64,000 bases of DNA, taken from Patescibacteria group bacterium. Its GTDB lineage: Bacteria > Patescibacteriota > Minisyncoccia > Portnoybacterales > UBA2143. The notes under the pieces are model-generated. The model saw only the letters and a list, made by a program, of their open reading frames with translations. It did not search any database and was not told the DNA's origin. The translations under genes and the position numbers were made by a program. This document shows, piece by piece, positions 8,941 through 63,201 of this stretch. The stretch's first letter is position 1. The number at the start of each line of letters is the position of its first letter. The DNA is taken from positions 257,980 through 321,979 of the forward strand of contig JAHJSM010000001.1 of the NCBI GenBank assembly GCA_018830295.1, read 5' to 3'.

Positions 8941-9028
8941 GCCGGTGTGGCGGAATTGGCTATACGCGTGCGACTCAAAATCGTATGAACGAAAGTTCAT
9001 GTGGGTTCAACTCCCACCACCGGCACCA
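8941..9028 (+). tRNA. tRNA-Leu (anticodon CAA), class II with long variable arm, CCA encoded
   Basis: Acceptor GCCGGTG/CACCGGC; D-arm GTGGCGGAATTGGCTATACGC resembles E. coli tRNA-Leu; anticodon stem TGCGA/TCGTA with loop CTCAAAA; variable arm TGAACGAAAGTTCAT; T-arm GTGGG-TTCAACT-CCCAC; ends ACCA. Confidence 0.8.
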
Positions 9029-13907: not shown

Positions 13908-15353
13908 TTACAACCGAGGGAAGAGCGCCTCGGTTTTTTTGTTTTGCTTGATTTGCTCTAAAATCTTTTCGGCCGTTCGCGGCATAAATGGTTTGAGCAA
14001 AATGGCGATTTCTTTTAGGGAAACGAGCAAATCCGAGATTACTTCATTAAACTTTTTTTCGTCGTTCTTTTGCAATTCCCATGGTTTGTTTTTTTCAACA
14101 TACTCATCGCAAACCGAAATTAATTTCCAAACCGCCTCCAACGCTTCATTAAATTTAATCTCCCCAAGCGCTTTTTTATAATTTTCTTTGGTTAATTTAA
14201 TCTCTTCTTCTATCTTATGATTTATGATTCCTGATTCCTGATTCATTTTTATTTTCTCCGCCAAGGTTAAAACCCGGCTAACCAAATTCCCCAACCCATT
14301 CGCCAAATCGGCATTGTATCTTTCTTTAAGCCGTTCGGCGCTAAAATCACCATCTTCTGTGCTGGAAAATTCTCGCAAAACATAATAACGAACAACTTCG
14401 GCTCCGTATTTTTCAACAACATCAAAAGGATTAACAACATTGCCGATTGACTTGGACATTTTTTGCCCTTCAGAAGTAAAATACCCGTGAATAAAGACCT
14501 TTTTGGGCAAAGGCAGTTCGGCCGCCAAAAGCATCGCTGGCCACAAAAGAGTATGAAATCGCAAAATGTCTTTTCCGACGCAATGGATATCAGCCGGCCA
14601 ATACCGCTCAAAATTCTTTTCATTGCCGCCATATCCAAGCGCGGAAATATAATTGCAAAGCGCCTCAAACCAGACATAAATCGTTTGCGAAGCGTCCTTT
14701 TCAACGGGAATTCCCCAAGTAAGATTTTCCTTGGGTCGAGAGATACTCACATCCTCAACCCCTTGTTTAATTAAACCCAAAATCTCTTTTTTCCTTTTTT
14801 CGGGGACAATGCCTAATTCATTTTTTTCAATCATCTCCTTTACTCTCGGAATGTATTTTGATAATTTGAAAAAATAGTTTTCTTCCTCTAAAACATCTGG
14901 TTCTTTTTTGTGTATCGGGCATTTGCCGTCAACCAAATCGCTTTGATTAAGATACGCCTCGCACCCGGCGCAATAAAGCCCCTCGTATTTTCCTTTATAA
15001 ATATCTCCTTTGCTATTCAAAATATCCCAGATTTTATAAACAGACGGCCAATGGCGTTTTGAGTCGCTTGTTCTAATAAAATCATCGTTTGATATATTCA
15101 AAACCTCTGTTAATCTCTTAAATTCAGATGTGTTCTCGTCAATAAGCGCCTGAACAGATTTCCCGGTTTTTTCAGCCGTCCTAACTATTTTTATCCCATG
15201 CTCATCCGCCCCCGTTAAAAAGAAAACATCATCCCCCAACTGACGATAATAGCGCGCCAAAACATCCGCCTGAACCATCTCCAAGGCATGTCCAATATGA
15301 GGAACCGAATTAACATAAAAAATACTGGTGGTGATATAGAATTTATTCTTCAT
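13908..15353 (-). CDS. metG: methionyl-tRNA synthetase (short form)
   Basis: 481 aa; 'HIGHAL' and 'KMSKSIGN' class I motifs, CxxC zinc knuckle. Confidence 0.9.
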   Translation of the reverse strand: MKNKFYITTSIFYVNSVPHIGHALEMVQADVLARYYRQLGDDVFFLTGADEHGIKIVRTAEKTGKSVQALIDENTSEFKRLTEVLNISNDDFIRTSDSKRHWPSVYKIWDILNSKGDIYKGKYEGLYCAGCEAYLNQSDLVDGKCPIHKKEPDVLEEENYFFKLSKYIPRVKEMIEKNELGIVPEKRKKEILGLIKQGVEDVSISRPKENLTWGIPVEKDASQTIYVWFEALCNYISALGYGGNEKNFERYWPADIHCVGKDILRFHTLLWPAMLLAAELPLPKKVFIHGYFTSEGQKMSKSIGNVVNPFDVVEKYGAEVVRYYVLREFSSTEDGDFSAERLKERYNADLANGLGNLVSRVLTLAEKIKMNQESGIINHKIEEEIKLTKENYKKALGEIKFNEALEAVWKLISVCDEYVEKNKPWELQKNDEKKFNEVISDLLVSLKEIAILLKPFMPRTAEKILEQIKQNKKTEALFPRL

Positions 15354-16206
15354 TTTTTAAACAAAAACTATCCAACGGACTGCGAATATTTTTTAATTTA
15401 TTGGTAGCCACCTTCGTATAAATTTGTGTTGTTTCTAACCTTTTATGCCCCAATAATTCTTGAATATATCTTATACTTACACCGCTTTCAAGTAAATGCG
15501 TCGCGAAACTATGCCGTAAACTATGGCAACTGACTTGCTTTTTTATGCCAGATTTTTTTAACGCGCTACTAAAAGTTTTTTGAACTGCCCGTTCCGTTAA
15601 TTTCCCTCCTCTCAAACTTTCAAAAACATAATTATTAGCTTCTTTGGTTTTGATATATTTCTCCAAAACACCCGCAACTTTTTCAGATAAAATAGTTATT
15701 CTATCTTTCGCTCCTTTGGCTTGCCTAATTCTAACTGCTCTGCCGCCAAAATCCAAATCTTGAACCTTAACATTAACAACCTCTGAAACGCGCAGCCCAG
15801 ACGAATACATTAAAGCCAATAATAATTTGTGTTTAACATTTTGAACAGTGGCTAAAATATTCGCTATTTCTTTTTTGCTTAAAACTTCCGGCAATCTCTT
15901 TGCCTTTTTGGCTCTTGGTATATTTATAAAAAATTTTCGGCGGAGAATTTTCTCAAAATAAAATTTCAACGCGCTATAGGCGGTATTTAAGGTCGAACTT
16001 GATTTTCTATTATCGGATAATTTTTCCAAATAAATTCTAATGTCCGCCGTGTTAATTGTTTTCGGATTTTTATTTGCGAATTTTAATATGTTCGTGATAT
16101 AATACAGGTAGGATTTAATAGTTTTATCGCTGAACCTCCGCAATTTCATTTCCTGCTTTAATTGCAATATTGGATTCTTGCTCGGATATTGATAATTACT
16201 GTTCAT
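15343..16206 (-). CDS. tyrosine site-specific recombinase, Xer-like (XerC/XerD family)
   Basis: 287 aa; catalytic R ('LRVSE'), 'HSLRHSFAT' box, 'LGH', Tyr in 'IYTKV'; R-to-H spacing is Xer-like, not IntI-like; overlaps the metG start by 11 nt. Confidence 0.8.
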   Translation of the reverse strand: MNSNYQYPSKNPILQLKQEMKLRRFSDKTIKSYLYYITNILKFANKNPKTINTADIRIYLEKLSDNRKSSSTLNTAYSALKFYFEKILRRKFFINIPRAKKAKRLPEVLSKKEIANILATVQNVKHKLLLALMYSSGLRVSEVVNVKVQDLDFGGRAVRIRQAKGAKDRITILSEKVAGVLEKYIKTKEANNYVFESLRGGKLTERAVQKTFSSALKKSGIKKQVSCHSLRHSFATHLLESGVSIRYIQELLGHKRLETTQIYTKVATNKLKNIRSPLDSFCLKNEE

Positions 16207-16297
16207 AGTATTGTTATGATCGGAAGTTAATGCGATTATTTTATCTCGTTTGTCAAATCAAGTCAATAAGTTCGTATATAACTTGTTATACGCAATC

Positions 16298-16748
16298 GGC
16301 ACGGGGCACTATAAAAGCAAAAATTATAAAAGGAATGATATTCTTATGAATAATATGGCTCAAAAATCAAAATATCAAATTTATCAAATAGCAAAATTTG
16401 TTATTCTTTCAGTTATAATAATTTATTTTTTGTATTTCAAGATGCATATCCCTGTAACCCTTGTTTTAATTCTCGAAATTTTACTTTTTATTAAACTTCT
16501 TCCGATTACAAAATTTGTTGAAGGAAAAATTATTAGATATTACCCAAAATATGACAACTTCAATATTTGGATAAAACGTTTAATCTTGTTAGTTTCCTGG
16601 ATTTTGATTTTTATAATTCTAAAATTTATTATTGTTAATATCATAATGATTAAAATATTGAATATACCTGTTGAACAACAGATTTATGATTTCATTAACA
16701 AAACTGCTAAATAATTTTTGCAGATAAAAAAATGACGTGCCCCGTGCC
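16298..16748. repeat. AT-rich 451-bp segment bounded by perfect 12-bp inverted repeats GGCACGGGGCAC (16298-16309) and GTGCCCCGTGCC (16737-16748)
   Basis: Read directly; the segment contains one small ORF. Confidence 0.75.
16346..16714 (+). CDS. small hydrophobic membrane protein (cassette ORF), ATG re-assigned to 16346
   Basis: About 122 aa in-frame with track ORF 16250-16714; AAGGA 11 nt upstream; very AT-rich and Ile/Leu/Lys-rich with 3-4 predicted TM helices; entirely inside the inverted-repeat-bounded segment. Confidence 0.45.
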   Translation: MNNMAQKSKYQIYQIAKFVILSVIIIYFLYFKMHIPVTLVLILEILLFIKLLPITKFVEGKIIRYYPKYDNFNIWIKRLILLVSWILIFIILKFIIVNIIMIKILNIPVEQQIYDFINKTAK

Positions 16749-16806
16749 GACTTCTCCGCTTCGCTCCGACCACGCCTTGCAGGCTCTCCTCCTTTCAGTC
16801 GTCGGG

Positions 16807-16892
16807 GCGTATAACAAGGATTATGAGGAAAATTCCTGCTGAATTTTCCCAAATTTGCTTCGCAAACTTCTCATAATCCTGATGTTATACGC
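16807..16892. repeat. 86-bp imperfect palindrome with extrahelical bases (GCGTATAACA-AGGATTATGAG ... CTCATAATCCT-GA-TGTTATACGC), nested hairpin GGAAAATTC/GAATTTTCC
   Basis: Read directly; its right end TGTTATACGCAAT (16883-16895) is a 13-bp direct repeat of 16284-16296, next to the recombinase gene. Confidence 0.7.
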
Positions 16893-16961
16893 AATTCAAA
16901 AAGCCTCTCTTTATTAATCAATTTAATAATTTTAGCAATTTATTTTTTTAACTAGACCAAT

Positions 16962-17504
16962 ATGAACGAGCTAAATCAAAAATTTACACCCTCCTTAGAA
17001 AAAATGGAAAAAGTAGAACCTCAAATCGAAACGGCAACAACCAAAAACATTAAGGATATTCAAAATTTGAATAGACTGTTGTTTGAAGAAGAGTTCGTTA
17101 AATACGACAAAACTATTAATTGTGATTGGCCATTATCTCAAGATGGGGAAGATTTTTACAAAGAAAGAGTTGAGAGCAAAAAAGGCTGCGCTTTTGTTTT
17201 AAAAATTAACGAGAAGATTGTTGGTTATCTTGCTGGAAGCTTGTCGGAAAATGAATTTTATAGAAATGTAGATAGTTTTGCTGAGTTAGATGATATGTAT
17301 ATCATAGAAGAACATAGAAGAGCTGGACATGGTAAAAAACTTTATGATGCTTTCATTGGTTGGTGTAAAGAAAACGCCGTCAAAAGAATTAAAGTACTTG
17401 TCACAGCTAGAAATACCCAAGCTATCAAATTTTATAAAACCCAAGGATTTAATGACTACAATGTCACCTTGGAATCTGATATTGACCAGTTAAATAAATT
17501 GTAA
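16962..17504 (+). CDS. GNAT family N-acetyltransferase
   Basis: 180 aa; acetyl-CoA binding motif A-like 'HRRAGHGKKLYDAF' and GNAT fold pattern. Confidence 0.8.
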   Translation: MNELNQKFTPSLEKMEKVEPQIETATTKNIKDIQNLNRLLFEEEFVKYDKTINCDWPLSQDGEDFYKERVESKKGCAFVLKINEKIVGYLAGSLSENEFYRNVDSFAELDDMYIIEEHRRAGHGKKLYDAFIGWCKENAVKRIKVLVTARNTQAIKFYKTQGFNDYNVTLESDIDQLNKL

Positions 17505-17546
17505 AAAATTATTATTAAACAAAAATAAACGCGATTTCGGTAAACT

Positions 17547-17577
17547 AAAAAACCGTCTTATAGCAAGGCGGTTTTTT
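17547..17577 (+). terminator. hairpin AAAAAACCG...CGGTTTTTT after the GNAT gene
   Basis: Short G/C core with flanking A/T run; moderate. Confidence 0.4.
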
Positions 17578-17581
17578 AGCG

Positions 17582-17651
17582 TGGAGCCAAGGGGAATCGA
17601 ACCCCTCATTTCCGAGTGTCAAGCACGGAAACCTCGCCATGAGGTGGCCCC
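17582..17651 (-). other. tRNA-like element with canonical T-arm and acceptor but non-canonical D/anticodon region; possible degenerate tRNA or att-site remnant
   Basis: Minus-strand read GGGGCCA-CC-TCATGGCGAGG-TTTCCGTGCTTGACACTCGGAAA-TG-AGGGG-TTCGATT-CCCCT-TGGCTCC-A; acceptor 7 bp with one G-U; no 4-bp D-stem can be drawn; anticodon region needs an 11-nt loop or a stem with a U-U mismatch (loop CUUGACA, anticodon UGA); no CCA. Confidence 0.3.
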
Positions 17652-17699
17652 TTAAACTCCACAGGAGCATAATATCATAAAAATAAACAAAAAGAAAAC

Positions 17700-29802: not shown

Positions 29803-30220
29803 GGGGATGATTGGCTTCGATGAAAGTCAATTTCTTAATAAGCAAGACGAGTTTAATCGAACACTCGTTAAAGATCGATTAAGATAATAAATGTCAATTT
29901 ATTTTCAAAGGCAAGGAACGCGGTAGCTTCGCTATTTAGCGCTCCGAACCTGGCTTTAGCTGTCGCCTAAATAATTAGTCAACAGCCGTTCAAACCTTTG
30001 ATTCCTGATAGAGGGATTTGAATGTCATTTTTCAGGATAAGCGGACAAAATTATCTCGCTTTGACCGCCGACAACTTAGGGGTAAGAATTAGAAATTTTT
30101 TGTTTAGTTTTAAGTTTTTAATTCTTTAGTTCGCTTTTGGCGAACAAATTAAACTAATCTAATCTTGTAGAATTATTAAGAATCAACTTTTAGACGCGGG
30201 TTCAATTCCCGCCATCTCCA
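29803..30220 (+). ncRNA. ssrA: tmRNA (transfer-messenger RNA)
   Basis: Starts GGGGATGATTGGCTTCGA 5 nt after the smpB stop; ends with tRNA-like GACGCGGGTTCAATTCCCGCCATCTCCA (acceptor GGGGATG/CATCTCC, CCA not encoded); internal tag ORF ends ...CTGGCTTTAGCTGTCGCCTAA (L-A-L-A-V-A-stop). Confidence 0.8.
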
Positions 30221-30245
30221 CTCGGTAAAAAGCAAAATAAAAACT

Positions 30246-56285: not shown

Positions 56286-58760
56286 ATGCGAAAGAAGAAG
56301 AGGAAAATTATTAGGGCTCTTTTTAGATTTGCCGTTTTTTGCGGGGTTTTTTTCGTTTTGGGAGTTGTTGGGATTTTCGCCTATTTTGCCAAAGACCTGC
56401 CCGACCCGTCTAAAATGGAGGAGCGGCAGATTGTTGAGTCAACGAAAATTTACGACCGAACGGGAGAAGTAATACTTTATGATATTCACGGAGAGGAAAA
56501 AAGAACAATTATTCCTTTCGAAGAAATTCCCCAATTCGTCAAAGACGCGACAGTTGCGATTGAAGATGATAATTTTTACCATCATTTTGGCGTTGATTGG
56601 AAAGGAATTTTGCGCGCGGCCTGGGCGAATTTAAATAAAAATAAAATCTCTCAAGGCGGTTCCACAATCACCCAGCAATTTATTAAAAACGCCTACTTGG
56701 GTGGCCCCATGGCGGAAAGAACTTATCCGCGAAAAATAAAGGAAGTTGTTTTGGCGGTGGAATTAGAAAGCAAATATACAAAAGACGAAATTTTGGGATT
56801 TTATTTAAACCAAGTCCCCTACGGCTCAAACGCTTACGGAGTTGAATCGGCGAGCCAAACATTCCTTAATAAATCAGCGCGAGATATAACGCTGGCGGAA
56901 GCGGCGATTTTAGCCGCCCTAACCCAAGCGCCCAGTTATTATTCCCCTTACGGCTCACACCCGGAAGAACTTAAAAACAGACAGGAATATGTTTTAGACC
57001 GAATGGTTAAATTCAACTATATCACCGAGGAGCAGGCGAAAATAGCAAAAGAAGAAAAAATAGAATATGTTGGGCGATTAGACCTTAAAGCGCATCATTT
57101 TGTCGCGATGGTTGAAGAATATTTAGAAGAAAAATACAGCGGAACTTATGCCGATATTAATAAGGCGGGCTTAAAGGTTCACACTACTTTAGACTGGGAT
57201 CTCCAACAATTAGCCGAAGAAGTCGTCAACGAAGGAGCTCTGGAAAATGAGAAAAGATACAACGCCGATAACGCCGCTTTAGTGGCGCTTGATCCAAAAA
57301 CTGGACAGGTTCTCGCTCTGGTCGGCTCAAAAAACTACGCCGAAGACCAATTTAATGTCGCCACTAGCCCTTACCGACAGCCCGGCTCTTCTTTTAAGCC
57401 GTTCGCTTACGCCGCCGCTTTCCAAAAGGGATTTAATCCTGAAAGTATTTTATTTGATCTGCCGACCAGTTTTGGCAAATTCGGACCAGGAGAAGGGACG
57501 GAATACGCGCCAAACAATTATGACTTAAAATTCAGAGGGCCGCTCACGATGAGGCAGGCGCTCGCCCAATCCATCAACCTTCCCGCCGTTAAAACACTTT
57601 ACCTTGCCGGCGTCAGCGAAACGATCAACTTAGCGCAAGATATGGGAATTACGACCCTTAAAGACAGAAAGCAATATGGCTTGTCTTTGGTTTTGGGGGG
57701 CGGCGAGGTTAAACTTATAGACGAAACCGCCGCTTATGGCGTTTTCGCCGCCGAAGGGGTTAGACATCAAACAAACTTTATTCTTAAAATAGAGGACGCG
57801 GAAGGAAATATTTTAGAAGAATACAAGGACAAAGCGACAAATGTTTTAGAGCAACAAATCGCCCTTCAAATTACTGACATTCTCTCGGACGAAGCGGCGC
57901 GCGCGCCCATGTTCGGCGCCAAATCAAATCTTTATACCGCAGACCTACCAACCGCCGCCAAAACAGGCACAACCCAGGACTACACGGACGGATGGACAAT
58001 CGGATACACCCCACGATTAGTCGTTGGCGTCTGGGCGGGAAACAACGATTTTACGGAAAAAATGAAAAAAGGCGCGGCCGGTCTCTATGTCGCCGCCCCG
58101 ATTTGGAATGAGTTTATAACAAAAGCGCATGAGACACAAAACATAGAAGTAGAAAATTTTACGGCGCCTAAACCAATCACGAGTAGCGCGATTCCTATGC
58201 TCAACGGGGAAATCGCGTATAATAATAAAGTTAAAATTGATAAAATTTCCAAAAAATTAGCCACAAATTTAACTCCTCCTGATTTAATTGAAGAACATAT
58301 TTATCAAGAAGTTCATTGCGTCCTTTATTACACCAACAAATCCGCCGAAGACCCTCAATTCCAAAATTGGGAAGGACCTGTTTTAGAATGGGCGAGAAAT
58401 CAACCCTGCGCTAAAGGCGTTTGTTATAACCAAAATCCCCCGACTCAATCTGACGACATTCATACAATAGAAAACCAGCCGAAAATAAAAATCACTTCGC
58501 CCGAGCAAAACGATTTAATTAGCCAGTCGGTTTTAACTATCCAAGCCGAAGCCGAAGCGTCTTTAGGGATTAAACAAACCGACTTCTTTTTTAATAACCA
58601 ATTAATCGGTTCTGACACAATTAAGCCATACTCCGTCAATTTCAACATTCTCCCCTATCTAACTAATTCCTCCACCCAAACAATCAAGGTCCGCGCCTAC
58701 GACACCGTCCTCAACAGACAAGAAGACGAGATAGAGATAAAGACGGTTTTTACGCCTTGA
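56286..58760 (+). CDS. mrcA: penicillin-binding protein 1A (bifunctional GT51 transglycosylase/transpeptidase)
   Basis: 824 aa; GT51 motifs 'EDDNFYHHFGVD', 'GGSTITQQF'; transpeptidase 'SSFKP', 'KTGTT'. Confidence 0.9.
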   Translation: MRKKKRKIIRALFRFAVFCGVFFVLGVVGIFAYFAKDLPDPSKMEERQIVESTKIYDRTGEVILYDIHGEEKRTIIPFEEIPQFVKDATVAIEDDNFYHHFGVDWKGILRAAWANLNKNKISQGGSTITQQFIKNAYLGGPMAERTYPRKIKEVVLAVELESKYTKDEILGFYLNQVPYGSNAYGVESASQTFLNKSARDITLAEAAILAALTQAPSYYSPYGSHPEELKNRQEYVLDRMVKFNYITEEQAKIAKEEKIEYVGRLDLKAHHFVAMVEEYLEEKYSGTYADINKAGLKVHTTLDWDLQQLAEEVVNEGALENEKRYNADNAALVALDPKTGQVLALVGSKNYAEDQFNVATSPYRQPGSSFKPFAYAAAFQKGFNPESILFDLPTSFGKFGPGEGTEYAPNNYDLKFRGPLTMRQALAQSINLPAVKTLYLAGVSETINLAQDMGITTLKDRKQYGLSLVLGGGEVKLIDETAAYGVFAAEGVRHQTNFILKIEDAEGNILEEYKDKATNVLEQQIALQITDILSDEAARAPMFGAKSNLYTADLPTAAKTGTTQDYTDGWTIGYTPRLVVGVWAGNNDFTEKMKKGAAGLYVAAPIWNEFITKAHETQNIEVENFTAPKPITSSAIPMLNGEIAYNNKVKIDKISKKLATNLTPPDLIEEHIYQEVHCVLYYTNKSAEDPQFQNWEGPVLEWARNQPCAKGVCYNQNPPTQSDDIHTIENQPKIKITSPEQNDLISQSVLTIQAEAEASLGIKQTDFFFNNQLIGSDTIKPYSVNFNILPYLTNSSTQTIKVRAYDTVLNRQEDEIEIKTVFTP

Positions 58761-59850
58761 TTGGCATTATAACATAAGTATAGCTAATATCTCCAAAGGG
58801 TCTGACTACTACTGGTTTTGTGTCGGCATTTAGTCCTATAATTACTTTGTCGCTGAAAATATTATTTAACCCATCTAAGAAATAGCGGGAATTTAATATT
58901 ATATCCAAACCCTTTCCTTCAATTTTCGCTTCTAATTGCGACTTGTTTTCTCCAATATCTCCGCTCTTCGCGGAAACCTCTATTATTGATTTGTCGGGCT
59001 TGATTGAAAAATTAATATTATTATTTTTCTCGCTAAACAAACTGGCGATTTTAATATTATTAATTAATTCTGCCTTATTAACCACAACCTGGGTTATAAA
59101 TTTATTTGGGATAATCTGTTGATAATCTGGGTATTGACCATCTATTAACCTGGAGATAATTTGAACATCGCCTAAATCAAATAAAACCTGATTATGAGAC
59201 AAAATAATATCCACATCAATATCATCTTCCCCTAAAATCCTAATCAACTCTTGAACTGTTTTTTGGGGGATAATAATAAACTGCTTGTTTAATTTTTTAT
59301 CATTAATTTCAATGTTTTTTTCAGCCAAACGAAAACTATCAGTCGCGGCTAATTTAATTGAATTATTATTAAATTCCATATAAACGCCTGATATTTCTGG
59401 ACGCGATTCAGAAAAAGAAACCATATCCACAACTTGCGCGAAATTATTTTTCAAAACACTTCCTTTTATTTTTATTAAAGGACTGTCGGTAATTTTAGGA
59501 ATAATTGGAAAATCATCAGAACTTAAGCCATTAATAACTGACTTATAATTCTCGCATTTAACCTCTAATTGGTTATTTTTTGTTTTAAGTAATATTTTTT
59601 TATTAGGCAAGTTATTCACAAAACTGCTAATTAATTTAGCCGGCACGGTAATACTGCCCTCTTTTTCAATCTTCCCGCTTAACCAGCAATTAATCCCTAT
59701 TTCTAAATTAGTTGAAGATATTTTTAGTTTATTTTTTTCGGTGGATAAAAGTATATTATTTAAAATAGGTAAAGTTAAACTTCTGCCTATAATTCTTTCG
59801 GCGATATTTAAAACCTTTTTAAAATTTTCTTGAAGACAAATTAATTGCAT
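58750..59850 (-). CDS. dnaN: DNA polymerase III beta sliding clamp
   Basis: 366 aa; three-domain beta-clamp pattern, immediately downstream of dnaA. Confidence 0.85.
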   Translation of the reverse strand: MQLICLQENFKKVLNIAERIIGRSLTLPILNNILLSTEKNKLKISSTNLEIGINCWLSGKIEKEGSITVPAKLISSFVNNLPNKKILLKTKNNQLEVKCENYKSVINGLSSDDFPIIPKITDSPLIKIKGSVLKNNFAQVVDMVSFSESRPEISGVYMEFNNNSIKLAATDSFRLAEKNIEINDKKLNKQFIIIPQKTVQELIRILGEDDIDVDIILSHNQVLFDLGDVQIISRLIDGQYPDYQQIIPNKFITQVVVNKAELINNIKIASLFSEKNNNINFSIKPDKSIIEVSAKSGDIGENKSQLEAKIEGKGLDIILNSRYFLDGLNNIFSDKVIIGLNADTKPVVVRPFGDISYTYVIMPIKA

Positions 59851-60037: not shown

Positions 60038-61396
60038 TTAATTATATAGCCGTTCTTTGATTAAATCTATCTCCTGTTGAAAAGACGAATTATTTTTTAA
60101 TGCATTGTCTATTTTTTGGCAAGCATACATTACGGTTGTGTGGTCGCGACCGCCGACTTTTTCACCAATAAAAGGATAAGACCCGCTTAATTCTTTTCTA
60201 ATTAAATACATACTAATTTGGCGTGGTTGGACTAATTCTTTTTTTCTTGAACGGTTAATTAAATCACTAATATTAATATCATAAAATTCAGCCACTGTTT
60301 TAATTATATTTTTATAATTTGTTGTTTTTTGAGGGGGGTTAATAATTTGAGAAAGTATTTTAGAAGCGCCTTCTAGTGTAGGAATAGTGTTATTTAATTG
60401 AGAATAAGCGATGACGCGGTTAAGCGCCCCTTCTAATTCTCTAATATTTCTTTGGACATTTGTGGCGATATAAGTTAAAACATCTTCGGAAATTTTAAAT
60501 TCCTTCTCTTTTGTTTTGTTTTTTAAAATAGCTATTCTTGTTTCTAAATCAGGATAACTAATATCAGCGATCATTCCTCCTTCAAAACGCGAACGAAGCC
60601 GATCTTCTAATGTGGAAATCGCGCTTGGTTGTCTATCGGAAGTAATAATAATTTGCTTGTTTTTCTGATAAAGATAATTAAATGTATGAAAAAATTCTTC
60701 TTGAGTTTTTTCTTTGCCGGCGATAAACTGAATATCATCCATAATTAAAACATCTATTTTGCGATATTTATCTTTAAAACTATCCATCCCCTTTTTTCTA
60801 ATAGCATTAATTAATTCGTTGGTAAATTTTTCAGAACTTAAGTATTTTACTTTTTTAGGCGGATTTTTTTTTATTAAATGATTTCCAATTGCCTGCATAA
60901 GGTGGGTTTTACCTAACCCTACTCCTCCATAGACAAAAAGGGGGTTATAGAGTGTTCCAAGATTTTTAGTAATTGCTCTACCCGCCGCTTGGGCTAATTC
61001 ATTAAAAGAACCAATAACAAAATTATCAAAAGTATATTTAGGATTTAAGTTTGTTTCTTTATTAATAGAAAACTCTTGAAAATTAAGTTGGCTTCCGATT
61101 GAATCGGGAATTCGAATCGTTTCGTTTTTAGAATCGTCGTTTATCTGTTTTGCTTTGCCGATAATAAAATTAACCTCTTTAATGTCGGTTGAATTATCGC
61201 GAAGAATTTTTAAAATAAGTTTATTATACTTATTTTCCAGCCACTCTTTGGTAAATCCATTTGGCGCGCTCACAGTAATTAACCCTTCTTTTTGGGAATC
61301 AATCTTGGTGTCTCTAAACCAAGTAATAAAACTTGCTTTAGAAATATTTAATTCAACCTCGCCTAAGACGGTTTGCCAGAGTTCTTTTAAGTTCAT
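60038..61396 (-). CDS. dnaA: chromosomal replication initiator DnaA
   Basis: 452 aa; AAA+ 'LFVYGGVGLGKTHLMQAIGN', C-terminal DNA-binding domain IV. Confidence 0.95.
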   Translation of the reverse strand: MNLKELWQTVLGEVELNISKASFITWFRDTKIDSQKEGLITVSAPNGFTKEWLENKYNKLILKILRDNSTDIKEVNFIIGKAKQINDDSKNETIRIPDSIGSQLNFQEFSINKETNLNPKYTFDNFVIGSFNELAQAAGRAITKNLGTLYNPLFVYGGVGLGKTHLMQAIGNHLIKKNPPKKVKYLSSEKFTNELINAIRKKGMDSFKDKYRKIDVLIMDDIQFIAGKEKTQEEFFHTFNYLYQKNKQIIITSDRQPSAISTLEDRLRSRFEGGMIADISYPDLETRIAILKNKTKEKEFKISEDVLTYIATNVQRNIRELEGALNRVIAYSQLNNTIPTLEGASKILSQIINPPQKTTNYKNIIKTVAEFYDINISDLINRSRKKELVQPRQISMYLIRKELSGSYPFIGEKVGGRDHTTVMYACQKIDNALKNNSSFQQEIDLIKERLYN

Positions 61397-61715: not shown

Positions 61716-62054
61716 ATGTTACCCAAAGAACATAAACTAAAAAAGAAAAACGATTTTAAGGCAGTATTTAACAACGGAAGATATTGTCAGAAGAGTTTTA
61801 TTAAATTAAAATTTGCGAAAAACAACCTTCAAAAAAATCGCTTTGGGTTTATTGTGGGATTAAAAGTATCTAAAAAAGCGGTGGAAAGAAACCAAATTAA
61901 ACGGCGACTAGAAGAAATAACGCGGCTAATTTTTAATGAATTAAAGCAAGGGTTTGATGTTGTAGTTATGGTTGACCCCGTAATTAAAGAAAAAATATAC
62001 AGCGAGATTAAAGAAGAATTAGTAGGATTATATAAAAAAGTTATATGGAAATAA
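61716..62054 (+). CDS. rnpA: RNase P protein component
   Basis: 112 aa; basic 'RLKKKNDFKAVF' RnpA motif. Confidence 0.85.
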   Translation: MLPKEHKLKKKNDFKAVFNNGRYCQKSFIKLKFAKNNLQKNRFGFIVGLKVSKKAVERNQIKRRLEEITRLIFNELKQGFDVVVMVDPVIKEKIYSEIKEELVGLYKKVIWK

Positions 62055-62746
62055 TAGTAAAAATATTTGATCAAGTTCTTTATCTTCCTTTATTAAACGC
62101 CTTAATTTGGATATATAACATCCTTCCTTTTCGCGATTTAGGAATAGCGATTGTTATTTTAACTATTATCATCCGCTTTATTCTCTATCCTCTTTCTAAA
62201 AAAGCCATCCAGTCGCAAAAAGCGATGGCTAAGCTGCAGCCAGACATTAAAGAGGTTCAGAAAAAATTTAAAGACAAAGAAGAGCAAGCGAAACAGATGA
62301 TGCTTTTGTATAAAAAGCATAAAATTAATCCAGCGGCTGGTTGTTTGCCTATTTTAGTTCAATTCCCAGTTTTAATCGCGTTATACAGAGTTTTTTTCAC
62401 AGGTCTTAATCTTGAAAACATGAATAATCTTTACGGATTTATTCAAAAACCAGAAACGCTTAACTTTATGTTTTTAGGACTAATTGACCTTTCTCAAAGA
62501 AGTATTTTTTTAGCTCTTTTGGCAGGCGGACTACAGTTTGTTCAATCAAAGATGATTATGCCGCAAAAAAGCGTTGGGCAAAAAAGTAAGGGTTCAGATA
62601 TGGCTTCTATGATGGGCCAGCAAATGATGTATTTTATGCCCATCATCACTGTTTTTATCGCTTGGAGATTGCCAGCCGCCCTTCCTCTTTATTGGGTAGT
62701 GATTACTCTTTTCGGAATTATCCAACAACATTTTACAAAAACATGA
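62045..62746 (+). CDS. yidC: membrane protein insertase YidC (short form)
   Basis: 233 aa; conserved 5-TM core ('LPILVQFPVLIALY', C-terminal 'LPLYWVV'). Confidence 0.85.
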   Translation: MEIIVKIFDQVLYLPLLNALIWIYNILPFRDLGIAIVILTIIIRFILYPLSKKAIQSQKAMAKLQPDIKEVQKKFKDKEEQAKQMMLLYKKHKINPAAGCLPILVQFPVLIALYRVFFTGLNLENMNNLYGFIQKPETLNFMFLGLIDLSQRSIFLALLAGGLQFVQSKMIMPQKSVGQKSKGSDMASMMGQQMMYFMPIITVFIAWRLPAALPLYWVVITLFGIIQQHFTKT

Positions 62747-63201
62747 CAAACACAAACAATATTATCAAAGAAACAGTGGAGGAATTGTTGAGAAAAATGA
62801 GTTTTGAGGGCGAGGTTGATATTGATTCTTTTAATAAGGATGATGTTTTAGCGAACATTCAAACCAAACAAGCGGGATATTTAATCGGGCAGTCGGGGGC
62901 CAATTTGGATGCTTTGCAATTTTTAGCGAGGATTGTCGTAAACAAGAGAAACGAAGAGCCAATTCATTTTATTTTAGATGTTAATTCTTATCGCAAAAGC
63001 AGAATAGAATCATTAAGGGATTTGGCTAATAATATCGCCCAAAAAACATTATCAGACCAGGTGTCGGTCACTCTCCGCCCAATGCCCGCTTACGAGAGAA
63101 GGATTATTCATTTGGTTCTGGCTGAAAATTTGGATATTAGCACGGAAAGCGTTGGCGAAGGCGCGGAAAGAAGAATTGTTGTAAAACCCGCGAATTATTA
63201 A
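62743..63201 (+). CDS. jag: Jag/KhpB RNA-binding protein (KH + R3H), start re-assigned to ATG overlapping the yidC stop (ATGA)
   Basis: C-terminal R3H 'YERRIIHLVL'; conserved rnpA-yidC-jag synteny. Confidence 0.75.
   Translation: MTNTNNIIKETVEELLRKMSFEGEVDIDSFNKDDVLANIQTKQAGYLIGQSGANLDALQFLARIVVNKRNEEPIHFILDVNSYRKSRIESLRDLANNIAQKTLSDQVSVTLRPMPAYERRIIHLVLAENLDISTESVGEGAERRIVVKPANY

Follow-up and report, generated by a model that had tools for sequence, protein, structure and literature searches.

A probable integron-like cassette platform beside a Xer/IntI-related recombinase gene in a Patescibacteria genome

We analysed a 64,000-nucleotide stretch of a Patescibacteria group bacterium (contig JAHJSM010000001.1, assembly GCA_018830295.1, positions 257,980 to 321,979; hereafter the window, numbered from its first letter), with a focus on a tyrosine recombinase gene and the short unit that lies upstream of it. 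In our judgement the window probably contains an integron-like platform for gene capture that is occupied by a single cassette. Specifically, the locus comprises the recombinase gene (15343–16206, minus strand), a 28-bp core site that resembles both attI and dif (16269–16296), a mobile cassette of 599 bp (16286–16884, plus strand) with an attC-like structured element at its distal end (16801–16896, minus strand), and a GNAT acetyltransferase gene (16962–17504, plus strand), which is the fixed distal boundary of the platform in the source species. At the level of sequence, the comparison with other strains and with relatives shows exact, site-specific replacement of cassettes, together with arrays, covariation within the element, strand asymmetry and a split-site logic. 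The recombinase would be the catalyst of the exchange, and its substrate is presumably a folded single-stranded DNA that is resolved by replication. The original prediction, made from the letters of the window, had described an integron-like topology (a divergent recombinase, a core site, an open reading frame (ORF), and a palindrome ending in a GTT core) and had suggested an undescribed Xer-dependent cassette system; both proposals gain support from the polymorphism between strains and from the arrays in relatives.

Results

Structure of the core site

The core site was defined by a position weight matrix and by strain comparison. We collected 80 loci with relatives of the recombinase (38–76% identity), mostly from metagenome-assembled genomes (MAGs) of Patescibacteria (Moranbacteria, Falkowbacteria and Parcubacteria). 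A core site is carried by 58 of the 80, about 75 nt 5' of the start codon, and the matrix built from these 58 has the consensus ATTTCGCATAA-CAAGTT-ATATGCGAACT in the orientation of the recombinase gene. The site is an 11-6-11 imperfect palindrome with arms that are palindromic at 9 of 11 positions, as in 28-bp sites of the dif type. In the window it lies about 63 nt upstream of the recombinase start codon and is comprised of the inner (P) arm AGTTCGTATAT (16269–16279), the centre AACTTG (16280–16285) and the outer (D) arm TTATACGCAAT (16286–16296). A sigma-70-like promoter of the recombinase gene, located by a promoter scan (TTGACT, 17 nt, TAAAAT; 16238–16266, minus strand), abuts the inner arm directly, and this arrangement is kept in relatives. 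Arrays are found on the core-site side only and diverge from the recombinase gene, as they do from an integrase gene with its adjacent attI.

The 13-bp direct repeat TGTTATACGCAAT, by which the original prediction had delimited the unit, is exact at both of its positions (16284–16296 and 16883–16895, plus strand; period 599), but its two copies are not equivalent as boundaries. To judge from the strain comparison, the left copy is the outer arm of the core site preceded by the last two bases of the centre; it belongs to the cassette and varies between strains. The right copy is the native outer arm, and neither it nor the flank leading to the GNAT gene varies in any of the strains. The direct repeat is visible because the arm of this cassette happens to equal the native arm. 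Taken alone, the repeat is a weak signal (4 matches at up to two mismatches versus 1.8 expected), and no further exact copy was found within the 64-kb window; the comparative data exclude chance. In duplex form, the distal junction has no match to the inner arm (TTCTCATAATC versus AGTTCGTATAT).

Many related contigs stop about 100–230 nt upstream of the recombinase gene, at or near the core site. A large share of the public contigs with this gene terminate at or within the site itself, as in L002, L003, L008, L009, L014, L016, L024, L040, L084, L085, L087, L088 and others (L numbers denote individual contigs or loci). Such ends are consistent with population heterogeneity or with hairpin-related coverage loss at the insertion point, and MAGs probably lose arrays systematically as a result of these breaks. 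Additionally, five related genomes (L007, L036, L037, L045 and L052) have the core site and no element within reach.

Exact replacement of cassettes between strains

Eight contigs from different samples encode a 100% identical recombinase. Their common sequence runs through the promoter and the inner arm to TAAC|AAGTT (the bar marks the boundary), beyond which they continue into unrelated DNA, with five different outer arms among them: ATTGCGTATAAC, ATTTCACATAAC, ..ATATATAAC, ATTTCGCCTAAC and ATTTCAGCTAAC. On the distal side, ten contigs that encode an identical GNAT protein share |GTTATACGCAATTCAAAAAGCC up to the GNAT start; this common flank begins |GTTATACGCAATTC..., and the contigs diverge immediately to the left of it, where four different last elements are present. 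The breakpoints fall at AACTT|GTTA on the left and at |GTTATACGCAAT on the right, with a resolution limited to the shared GTTA/TAAC. One metagenome contig, L108, has both fixed flanks and carries a 1,735-bp cassette, encoding a 217-aa protein and an N6/N4 methyltransferase, in place of the 599-bp cassette of the window. At least three cassettes are present in L082 and in L109, and cassettes other than that of the window lie between these boundaries in L082, L083, L086, L087 and among L091–L099. The limits of the window cassette, with G|TT at either end, were set from the period of the direct repeat, the replacement in L108 and the cassettes of the other strains. The unit, which the original prediction had proposed to compare across strains, is polymorphic between them and is exchanged exactly at the repeat boundaries. 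A fixed arrangement, repeats confined to this locus and a canonical dif had also been reckoned with; we find that the arrangement varies, that the palindrome type recurs elsewhere, and that the site lies about 45 kb from the replication origin, oriC.

These data bear on two alternatives that had been raised at the outset. According to the first, the unit is an insertion of a miniature inverted-repeat transposable element (MITE) or another transposon, and the 13-bp direct repeat is its target-site duplication. A short unit with flanking direct repeats and internal inverted repeats would suit such an insertion; however, the supposed duplication is an arm of the conserved site of the recombinase, the left arm differs in other cassettes inserted here, so that these show no duplication, and no second copy of the unit exists within the window, which leaves this explanation extremely improbable. 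The second, a dif-flanked Xer (pdif) module, is not supported, the boundaries being direct repeats of one arm.

The GNAT gene is 41% identical to a GNAT gene that is a bona fide cassette in another array (L054, 3691–4185), and may itself have been a cassette before losing the site for recombination. We rejected it as a second cassette in the window, since no element follows the gene even with filters off and the gene is fixed in all strains.

An attC-like element with a conserved three-way junction

The element was delimited by a covariance model (R1), by its fold and by covariation. The 86-bp imperfect palindrome that the original prediction had placed at 16807–16892 does fold strongly, as the region 16715–16960 that holds it folds better than shuffled sequences (z = −4.8); it is not a simple hairpin, being made of a closing stem and two internal hairpins. 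In the window, P1 is formed by GCGTATAAC pairing with GTTATACGC (16885–16893 / 16808–16816), followed by P2 and the hairpins P3 and P4, and the whole reads ATTGCGTATAAC-A-TCAGGATTATGAG-AAGT-hairpin-ATTTGGG-hairpin-CCTCATAATCCT-T-GTTATACGC. In relatives, a copy of the outer arm (ATTTCGCCTAAC) stands at the start of the element and the complement of that arm (GTTAGGCGA) at its end, with a second helix and two hairpins between them, and the motifs GAAGT and ATTTGGG are conserved. P1 resembles an R box and P2 an L box, the two being separated by an asymmetric spacer of 2–3 nt. Distally, the element branches into a conserved three-way junction, and no counterpart of the extrahelical bases of integron sites was identified in it. 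The 5' half runs from the outer arm through 8–10 nt to ATATxCGAAGT, a mimic of the inner arm that begins 7–9 nt after TAAC in 83% of elements. Many copies end in GCCTAAC/GTTAGGC, in agreement with the RYYYAAC...GTTRRRY pattern and G|TT boundary of integrons; the ends in the window, GTATAAC/GTTATAC, are one position off this pattern in each box.

Model R1 was built from an alignment of eight compact copies of the element, in which compensatory changes are seen at 22 of the 36 predicted pairs and P3 contains an invariant G.U pair. Searched against 752 kb, it gave 106 matches at E values up to 1. As many as 98 elements lie in the 222 kb upstream of recombinase genes, all on the recombinase-sense strand, and none in the 466 kb of recombinase gene and downstream sequence. 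The element of the window scores 83.7 bits (E about 1e-18 to 1e-20) on the minus strand and 27.1 bits on the opposite one. For each of the elements tested, the better fold was that of the recombinase-sense strand, which is antisense to the cassette genes. Further copies, which the original prediction had suggested looking for, thus exist in the form of this palindrome type, recurring in arrays beside related recombinases. Rfam has no match for the element, in the window or in relatives, and ARAGORN finds no tRNA at the locus. Integration into a tRNA gene was rejected on the ARAGORN result and on a tRNA-like remnant further downstream, which is fixed in all strains and unrelated to the boundaries.

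GC-rich units of about 150–200 nt that have no ORF and a fold z of about −11 were also observed in relatives (L019 5761–5925; L035 105–325; L022 509–804 and 2256–2598; L057 4913–5243). Each has a GCGCGC closing stem around two hairpins, the stems being duplex copies of the inner and outer arms, and the units are nested exactly at TAAC| of other elements, as if put in by the same recombination. In those of L019 and L035, the 3' strand of the element and the next outer arm form a tight hairpin with the loop GGAGCGAAGCGGA. One further sequence, L063 50–120, is an assembly artefact: Illumina adapter/index sequence (CAAGCAGAAGACGGCATACGAGAT...GTGACTGGAGTTCAGACGTGTGCTCTTCCGATCT) is fused to a truncated element at the start of a GenBank MAG contig.

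Cassette arrays and the split site in relatives

Arrays contain up to seven elements within the 6 kb fetched, at a spacing of about 0.5–1.3 kb. Of 81 inter-element gaps, 71 are occupied almost completely by a main (longest) ORF that is directed away from the recombinase gene. This is the integron pattern of one ORF with a downstream palindrome in a single orientation, to which the window also conforms with its ORF at 16346–16714 followed by the element at 16801–16896. The cassette ORFs are almost all mutually unrelated, and their predicted functions include NUDIX hydrolases, DNA and S-adenosylmethionine (SAM) methyltransferases, cupins, isochorismatase, L-PSP, GmrSD, GNAT, glyoxalase and others.

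Cassettes that exist as circular units would recombine at TAAC|, so the 3' P1 strand of an element is expected to match the outer arm at the recombinase-proximal end of its own cassette. Among 61 cassettes, the pairing with the own arm extends over 4.07 of 7 positions, whereas that with the adjacent arm extends over 2.93 of 7, no more than arms drawn at random would give (2.92 ± 0.13). The own arm is the better match in 40 cases and the poorer one in 6 (p = 4e-7). This corresponds to the split attC of integrons, and such an arrangement is hard to reconcile with a static RNA or terminator.

Together with the strain comparison, these observations bear on the proposal that the repeated element gives rise to a structured RNA, for example a terminator, mRNA stabiliser or small RNA, behind the genes of a hypervariable island, with strain differences brought about by homologous recombination. 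Strong folds, covariation, G.U pairs and the location of the elements at the 3' ends of ORFs would all be expected of an RNA. Against this, the strain breakpoints lie exactly at TAAC|/|GTT, P1 pairs with the arm across its own cassette rather than the adjacent arm, the better-folding strand is antisense to the cassette genes, and the elements are confined to one side of the recombinase gene and have no Rfam match. We consider the RNA proposal highly improbable.

The cassette of the window and its gene

Following its own outer arm, the cassette contains an ORF bracketed by an inverted repeat, a GC-rich domain and the attC-like element. The ORF (16346–16714, plus strand) points away from the recombinase gene and encodes a 122-aa hydrophobic protein, the small membrane protein of the original prediction. 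Its product has no Pfam or NCBIfam match, and no copy of the exact protein was found beyond the source contig; 30 clusters of homologues of about 120 aa with 63–99% identity establish it as a real gene. The GC content of the gene is 0.21 versus 0.39 for the window. The inverted repeat (TCGGCACGGGGCAC / GTGCCCCGTGCCGA; 2 matches at up to two mismatches versus 0.38 expected) was foreseen as perfect and as bracketing the gene, which holds, with a length of 12 bp, which does not: its arms are 14 bp long (16296–16309 and 16737–16750). The left arm precedes and the right arm follows the gene and its promoter-like signals, TATAAA/AAGGA. On the distal side of the repeat, the GC-rich 3' domain of the element (16751–16804, minus strand), delimited by its composition profile and by relatives, reads CCCCGACGAC...GGTCGGAGCGAAGCGGAGAAGT on the minus strand; related motifs come after the element in L061, L056 and L019. 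The loop motif GGAGCGAAGCGGA of the ORF-less units is present in the window at 16757–16770, next to the inverted repeat. The inverted repeat probably loops the gene out and so keeps the cassette ends close in the folded strand, a suggestion that we make tentatively.

A tyrosine recombinase gene beside a perfect inverted repeat around a gene with its own promoter also brings to mind an invertible switch, in which the 14-bp repeats would be the recombinase targets and a 427-bp segment with the small gene would flip. The orientation, however, is the same in all independent contigs with the window cassette (L081/L090 and L095), the repeat sequence is unlike the conserved core site, and comparable small genes elsewhere are bracketed by repeats of unrelated sequence. 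With no flipped variant among the independent contigs, we rejected the switch as scarcely credible.

Comparable repeat-bracketed genes were found in L061 (1717–2122), L082 (1–700) and L021 (4740–5100). All three encode small membrane proteins, have their own promoters and lie within long perfect inverted repeats; they reside inside the P4 loop of the element in L061 and L082, and in the cassette body in L021. All are on the recombinase-sense strand, and together they represent a recurrent sub-module.

Homologues of the cassette protein also occur on archaeal contigs. One, 78% identical, is encoded by L100 (4940–5440; also L101–L103), where the gene adjoins those for fibrillarin, Nop and ribosomal protein S17e and is flanked by a 19-nt direct repeat, GTAAGCCCCATTTTGTGGG; the Methanophagales MAG L104 carries a further one. 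Wherever this was examined (L100, L101, L104 and L105), the GC content of the gene is below that of the host, and none of the archaeal-contig homologues adjoins an attC-like element. These observations suggest that the small cassette gene is itself mobile across domains, and the archaeal homologues, at 65–78% identity, hint at gene exchange between domains.

Genomic position

The window includes dnaN (58750–59850, minus strand), dnaA (60038–61396, minus strand), yidC (62045–62746, plus strand) and jag/KhpB (62662–63201, plus strand), an AT-rich gap at 61.4–62.0 kb and a change in the sign of the GC skew at about 60–61 kb. These genes and the skew flip place oriC at about 61.5 kb. The core site is located about 45 kb from there, with no skew switch at 16.3 kb, and so is not at the terminus as a dif site would be; we rejected a terminus dif on its position relative to dnaA/dnaN and on the GC skew. 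The core site is origin-proximal, and the folding strand is the lagging-strand template. Among integrons, attC folding is favoured in this orientation, which is also associated with arrays that are small and dynamic (PMC5371416).

Downstream of the platform, a GC-rich tRNA-like remnant (17581–17665, minus strand) combines a perfect T-arm (GGGGTTCGATTCCCC) with an acceptor-like stem of 7 bp, but is recognised neither by ARAGORN nor by the Rfam tRNA model. It lies between the GNAT terminator hairpin (17545–17579) and rsmI, and the GNAT–rsmI spacing is constant in all strains examined. The window also contains ordinary genes for a transfer-messenger RNA (29803–30223; tag VNLFSKARNAVASLFSAPNLALAVA) and for tRNA-Leu(CAA) (8941–9028).

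A recombinase between Xer and IntI

The recombinase is a 287-aa, Xer/IntI-related tyrosine recombinase, as established with Pfam, NCBIfam and comparison with the Protein Data Bank (PDB). It contains the Pfam domains Phage_integrase and Phage_int_SAM_4, the catalytic motifs GLRVSE (at 137), KGAKDR (164), HSLRHSF (228), LGHKRL (252) and QIYTK (261), and an IntI-like C-terminus, IRSPLD. It passes the cutoff of the NCBIfam model recomb_XerA_Arch (246 bits, cutoff 220), which makes it a member of the Xer family, and falls short of that of the IntI model TIGR02249 (229 bits, cutoff 265), which it matches in two stretches. Its closest PDB match is the integron integrase VchIntIA / IntI4 (2a3v), and XerA (4a8e) matches as well (E = 1.6e-43). 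The alignment with 2a3v falls into two blocks, in which residues 13–185 correspond to 6–181 and residues 198–279 to 237–318. Between them, IntI4 residues 182–236 face 12 residues of the recombinase, so that about 43 residues of the IntI-specific additional domain (the I2 helix, around patch III) are absent; this gap bears out the Xer-like spacing without IntI-specific insertion that had been noticed in the original prediction. Integron integrases are defined by this domain, through which they recognise folded attC sites, and canonical integrases need the I2 helix or additional domain for attC recombination. Archaeal integrons, too, possess the additional domain (PMC9668308). A classification of tyrosine recombinases puts the Xer-related enzymes of candidate phyla in a subgroup called 'Cand' (PMC8138268), a scheme in which the window recombinase was not placed here.

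These properties make it necessary to weigh an explanation in terms of integrative mobile elements exploiting Xer (IMEXs). The recombinase would then be the Xer enzyme of chromosome-dimer resolution, with 16269–16296 as dif, and the cassettes would be small integrative elements that make use of Xer and stack at dif like CTX, TLC and the gonococcal genetic island (GGI). The XerA equivalog cutoff, the existence of the 'Cand' subgroup, the dif-like 11-6-11 palindrome and the fact that the cassettes have no recombinase of their own all fit, as does the integration of the CTX phage via a folded single strand that mimics dif. However, dnaA/dnaN and the GC-skew switch lie about 45 kb away, which puts the site outside the terminus, and long arrays of uniform orientation made of single-ORF units with a shared structured element are the pattern of integrons, unlike known IMEXs. 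We regard the IMEX explanation as unlikely, and the two views overlap, in that one Xer may do both jobs.

Several observations weigh against an integron-like platform. The recombinase does not belong to the IntI clade that carries the additional domain, and an enzyme that passes the XerA equivalog threshold could be a housekeeping Xer exploited by cassettes. Only a single cassette is present in the window, and the promoter-like signals and the inverted repeat that accompany the cassette gene are both atypical for integron cassettes. The empty-site junction GTATATAACTTGTTATACGCAATTCAAAAAGC was not found in metagenome contigs, and no unoccupied platform was seen in the source species. The excess of G.T over A.C pairs on the recombinase-sense strand (277 versus 66), which itself speaks for folding of that strand, was in part determined from an alignment that had been fitted to one strand, and the element structure could also act at the RNA level.

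Proposed mechanism of cassette exchange

We propose that the recombinase acts at the 28-bp core site just upstream of its own promoter, and that cassettes come and go by site-specific recombination, with a crossover at the boundary of centre and outer arm (top AACTT|GTTA, bottom TAAC|). After an insertion, the recombinase-proximal outer arm would be that of the cassette, and the original outer arm would have been displaced to the far end of the array, beside the GNAT gene. The recombinase-sense strand of the element is predicted to fold into a three-way junction, in which the P1 helix would serve as the outer-arm duplex and the stacked P2 and P3 as the inner-arm duplex (ATATxCGAAGT), with a partly unpaired spacer between them. 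The folded strand would in this way imitate the double-stranded core site, on the same principle as integron attC and CTX phage attP. Indirect support for such a folded substrate comes from the covariation, the G.T asymmetry, the orientation as lagging-strand template and the centres of the two sites: that of the element is not homologous to that of the core site. Because of these non-homologous centres, an exchange of two strands would generate mismatches, which an exchange of one strand followed by replication would avoid, as in integrons and the CTX phage. The model predicts the junctions ...CTCATAATCCTGATG|TTATACGCAATCGGCACGG for the excised circle and ...CGTATATAACTTG|TTATACGCAATTCAAAAAGC for the empty site.

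Discussion

As far as its sequence organisation tells, the system appears to work functionally like an integron, with a platform, arrays, a G|TT boundary, split palindromes and diverse cassettes, while one defining feature, the IntI additional domain, is lacking. A broader proposal, on which our judgement is evenly divided, is that Patescibacteria hold a widespread and undescribed integron-like cassette system, with a recombinase intermediate between Xer and IntI that has no I2 domain, and with three-way-junction sites of which one strand, when folded, imitates a dif-like attI; the system could be a 'proto-integron' that has survived, or the same solution arrived at independently. The literature available as open full text (subscription journals lie outside this coverage) yielded no account of such arrays, and Patescibacteria are not among the phyla known to have integrons in a 2021 review (PMC8618304).

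The platform, if real, has several implications. Members of the Candidate Phyla Radiation have tiny genomes and are thought to be limited in their means of gene acquisition; cassette-based gene capture would be extended to them. It would also demonstrate that cassette capture at folded sites is possible without the IntI-specific domain. How attC sites and the I2 domain could arise without each other has been described by Escudero et al. as a chicken-and-egg paradox (PMC4792948), and a natural platform with attC-like folded sites and an IntI/Xer-related enzyme that has no I2 domain would make this paradox directly testable. At the practical level, the platform would explain the assembly breaks beside the recombinase gene in these genomes, and the covariance model together with the core-site motif provides a means of finding further arrays.

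Among known systems, the integron is similar in having a divergent tyrosine recombinase gene beside the primary site, arrays of single ORFs in one orientation with diverse functions, and an imperfect palindrome of the form RYYYAAC...GTTRRRY with a G|TT boundary. In both systems this palindrome is split on insertion, its outer half coming to lie at the other end of the cassette, and the better-folding strand is antisense to the cassette genes. The differences are that the recombinase of the window has no IntI additional domain (I2 helix) and scores as XerA, that the primary site here is a symmetric, dif-like 11-6-11 palindrome, and that the element is a three-way junction with GAAGT and ATTTGGG, whereas attC is a single bulged hairpin. 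Additionally, promoter-like signals are present within some of the cassettes, that of the window among them.

The CTX phage and other IMEXs that use XerCD at dif share with the present system a Xer-type recombinase and an incoming element that has none, a folded single strand (here a predicted one) that corresponds to a duplex core site with a mismatched centre, and the exchange of the outer part of the site alone. In contrast to them, the target here adjoins the recombinase gene near oriC instead of being a terminus dif, and the inserted units are single-gene cassettes of 0.15–2.5 kb in long uniform arrays, not phages or genomic islands. XerS/difSL, XerH/difH and the archaeal XerA/dif likewise combine one recombinase with an imperfect palindrome of 28–31 bp, and XerA is the closest equivalog family; these systems serve dimer resolution without flanking variable arrays, whereas the outer arm here varies between strains. 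Finally, the pdif modules of Acinetobacter are also genes bracketed by Xer-type sites and found in varied contexts. Their sites are complete, alternate in inverted orientation (C/D – D/C) and are plasmid-borne, while the boundaries here are direct, and the distal one is in duplex form a half-site of which the folded element would supply the remainder.

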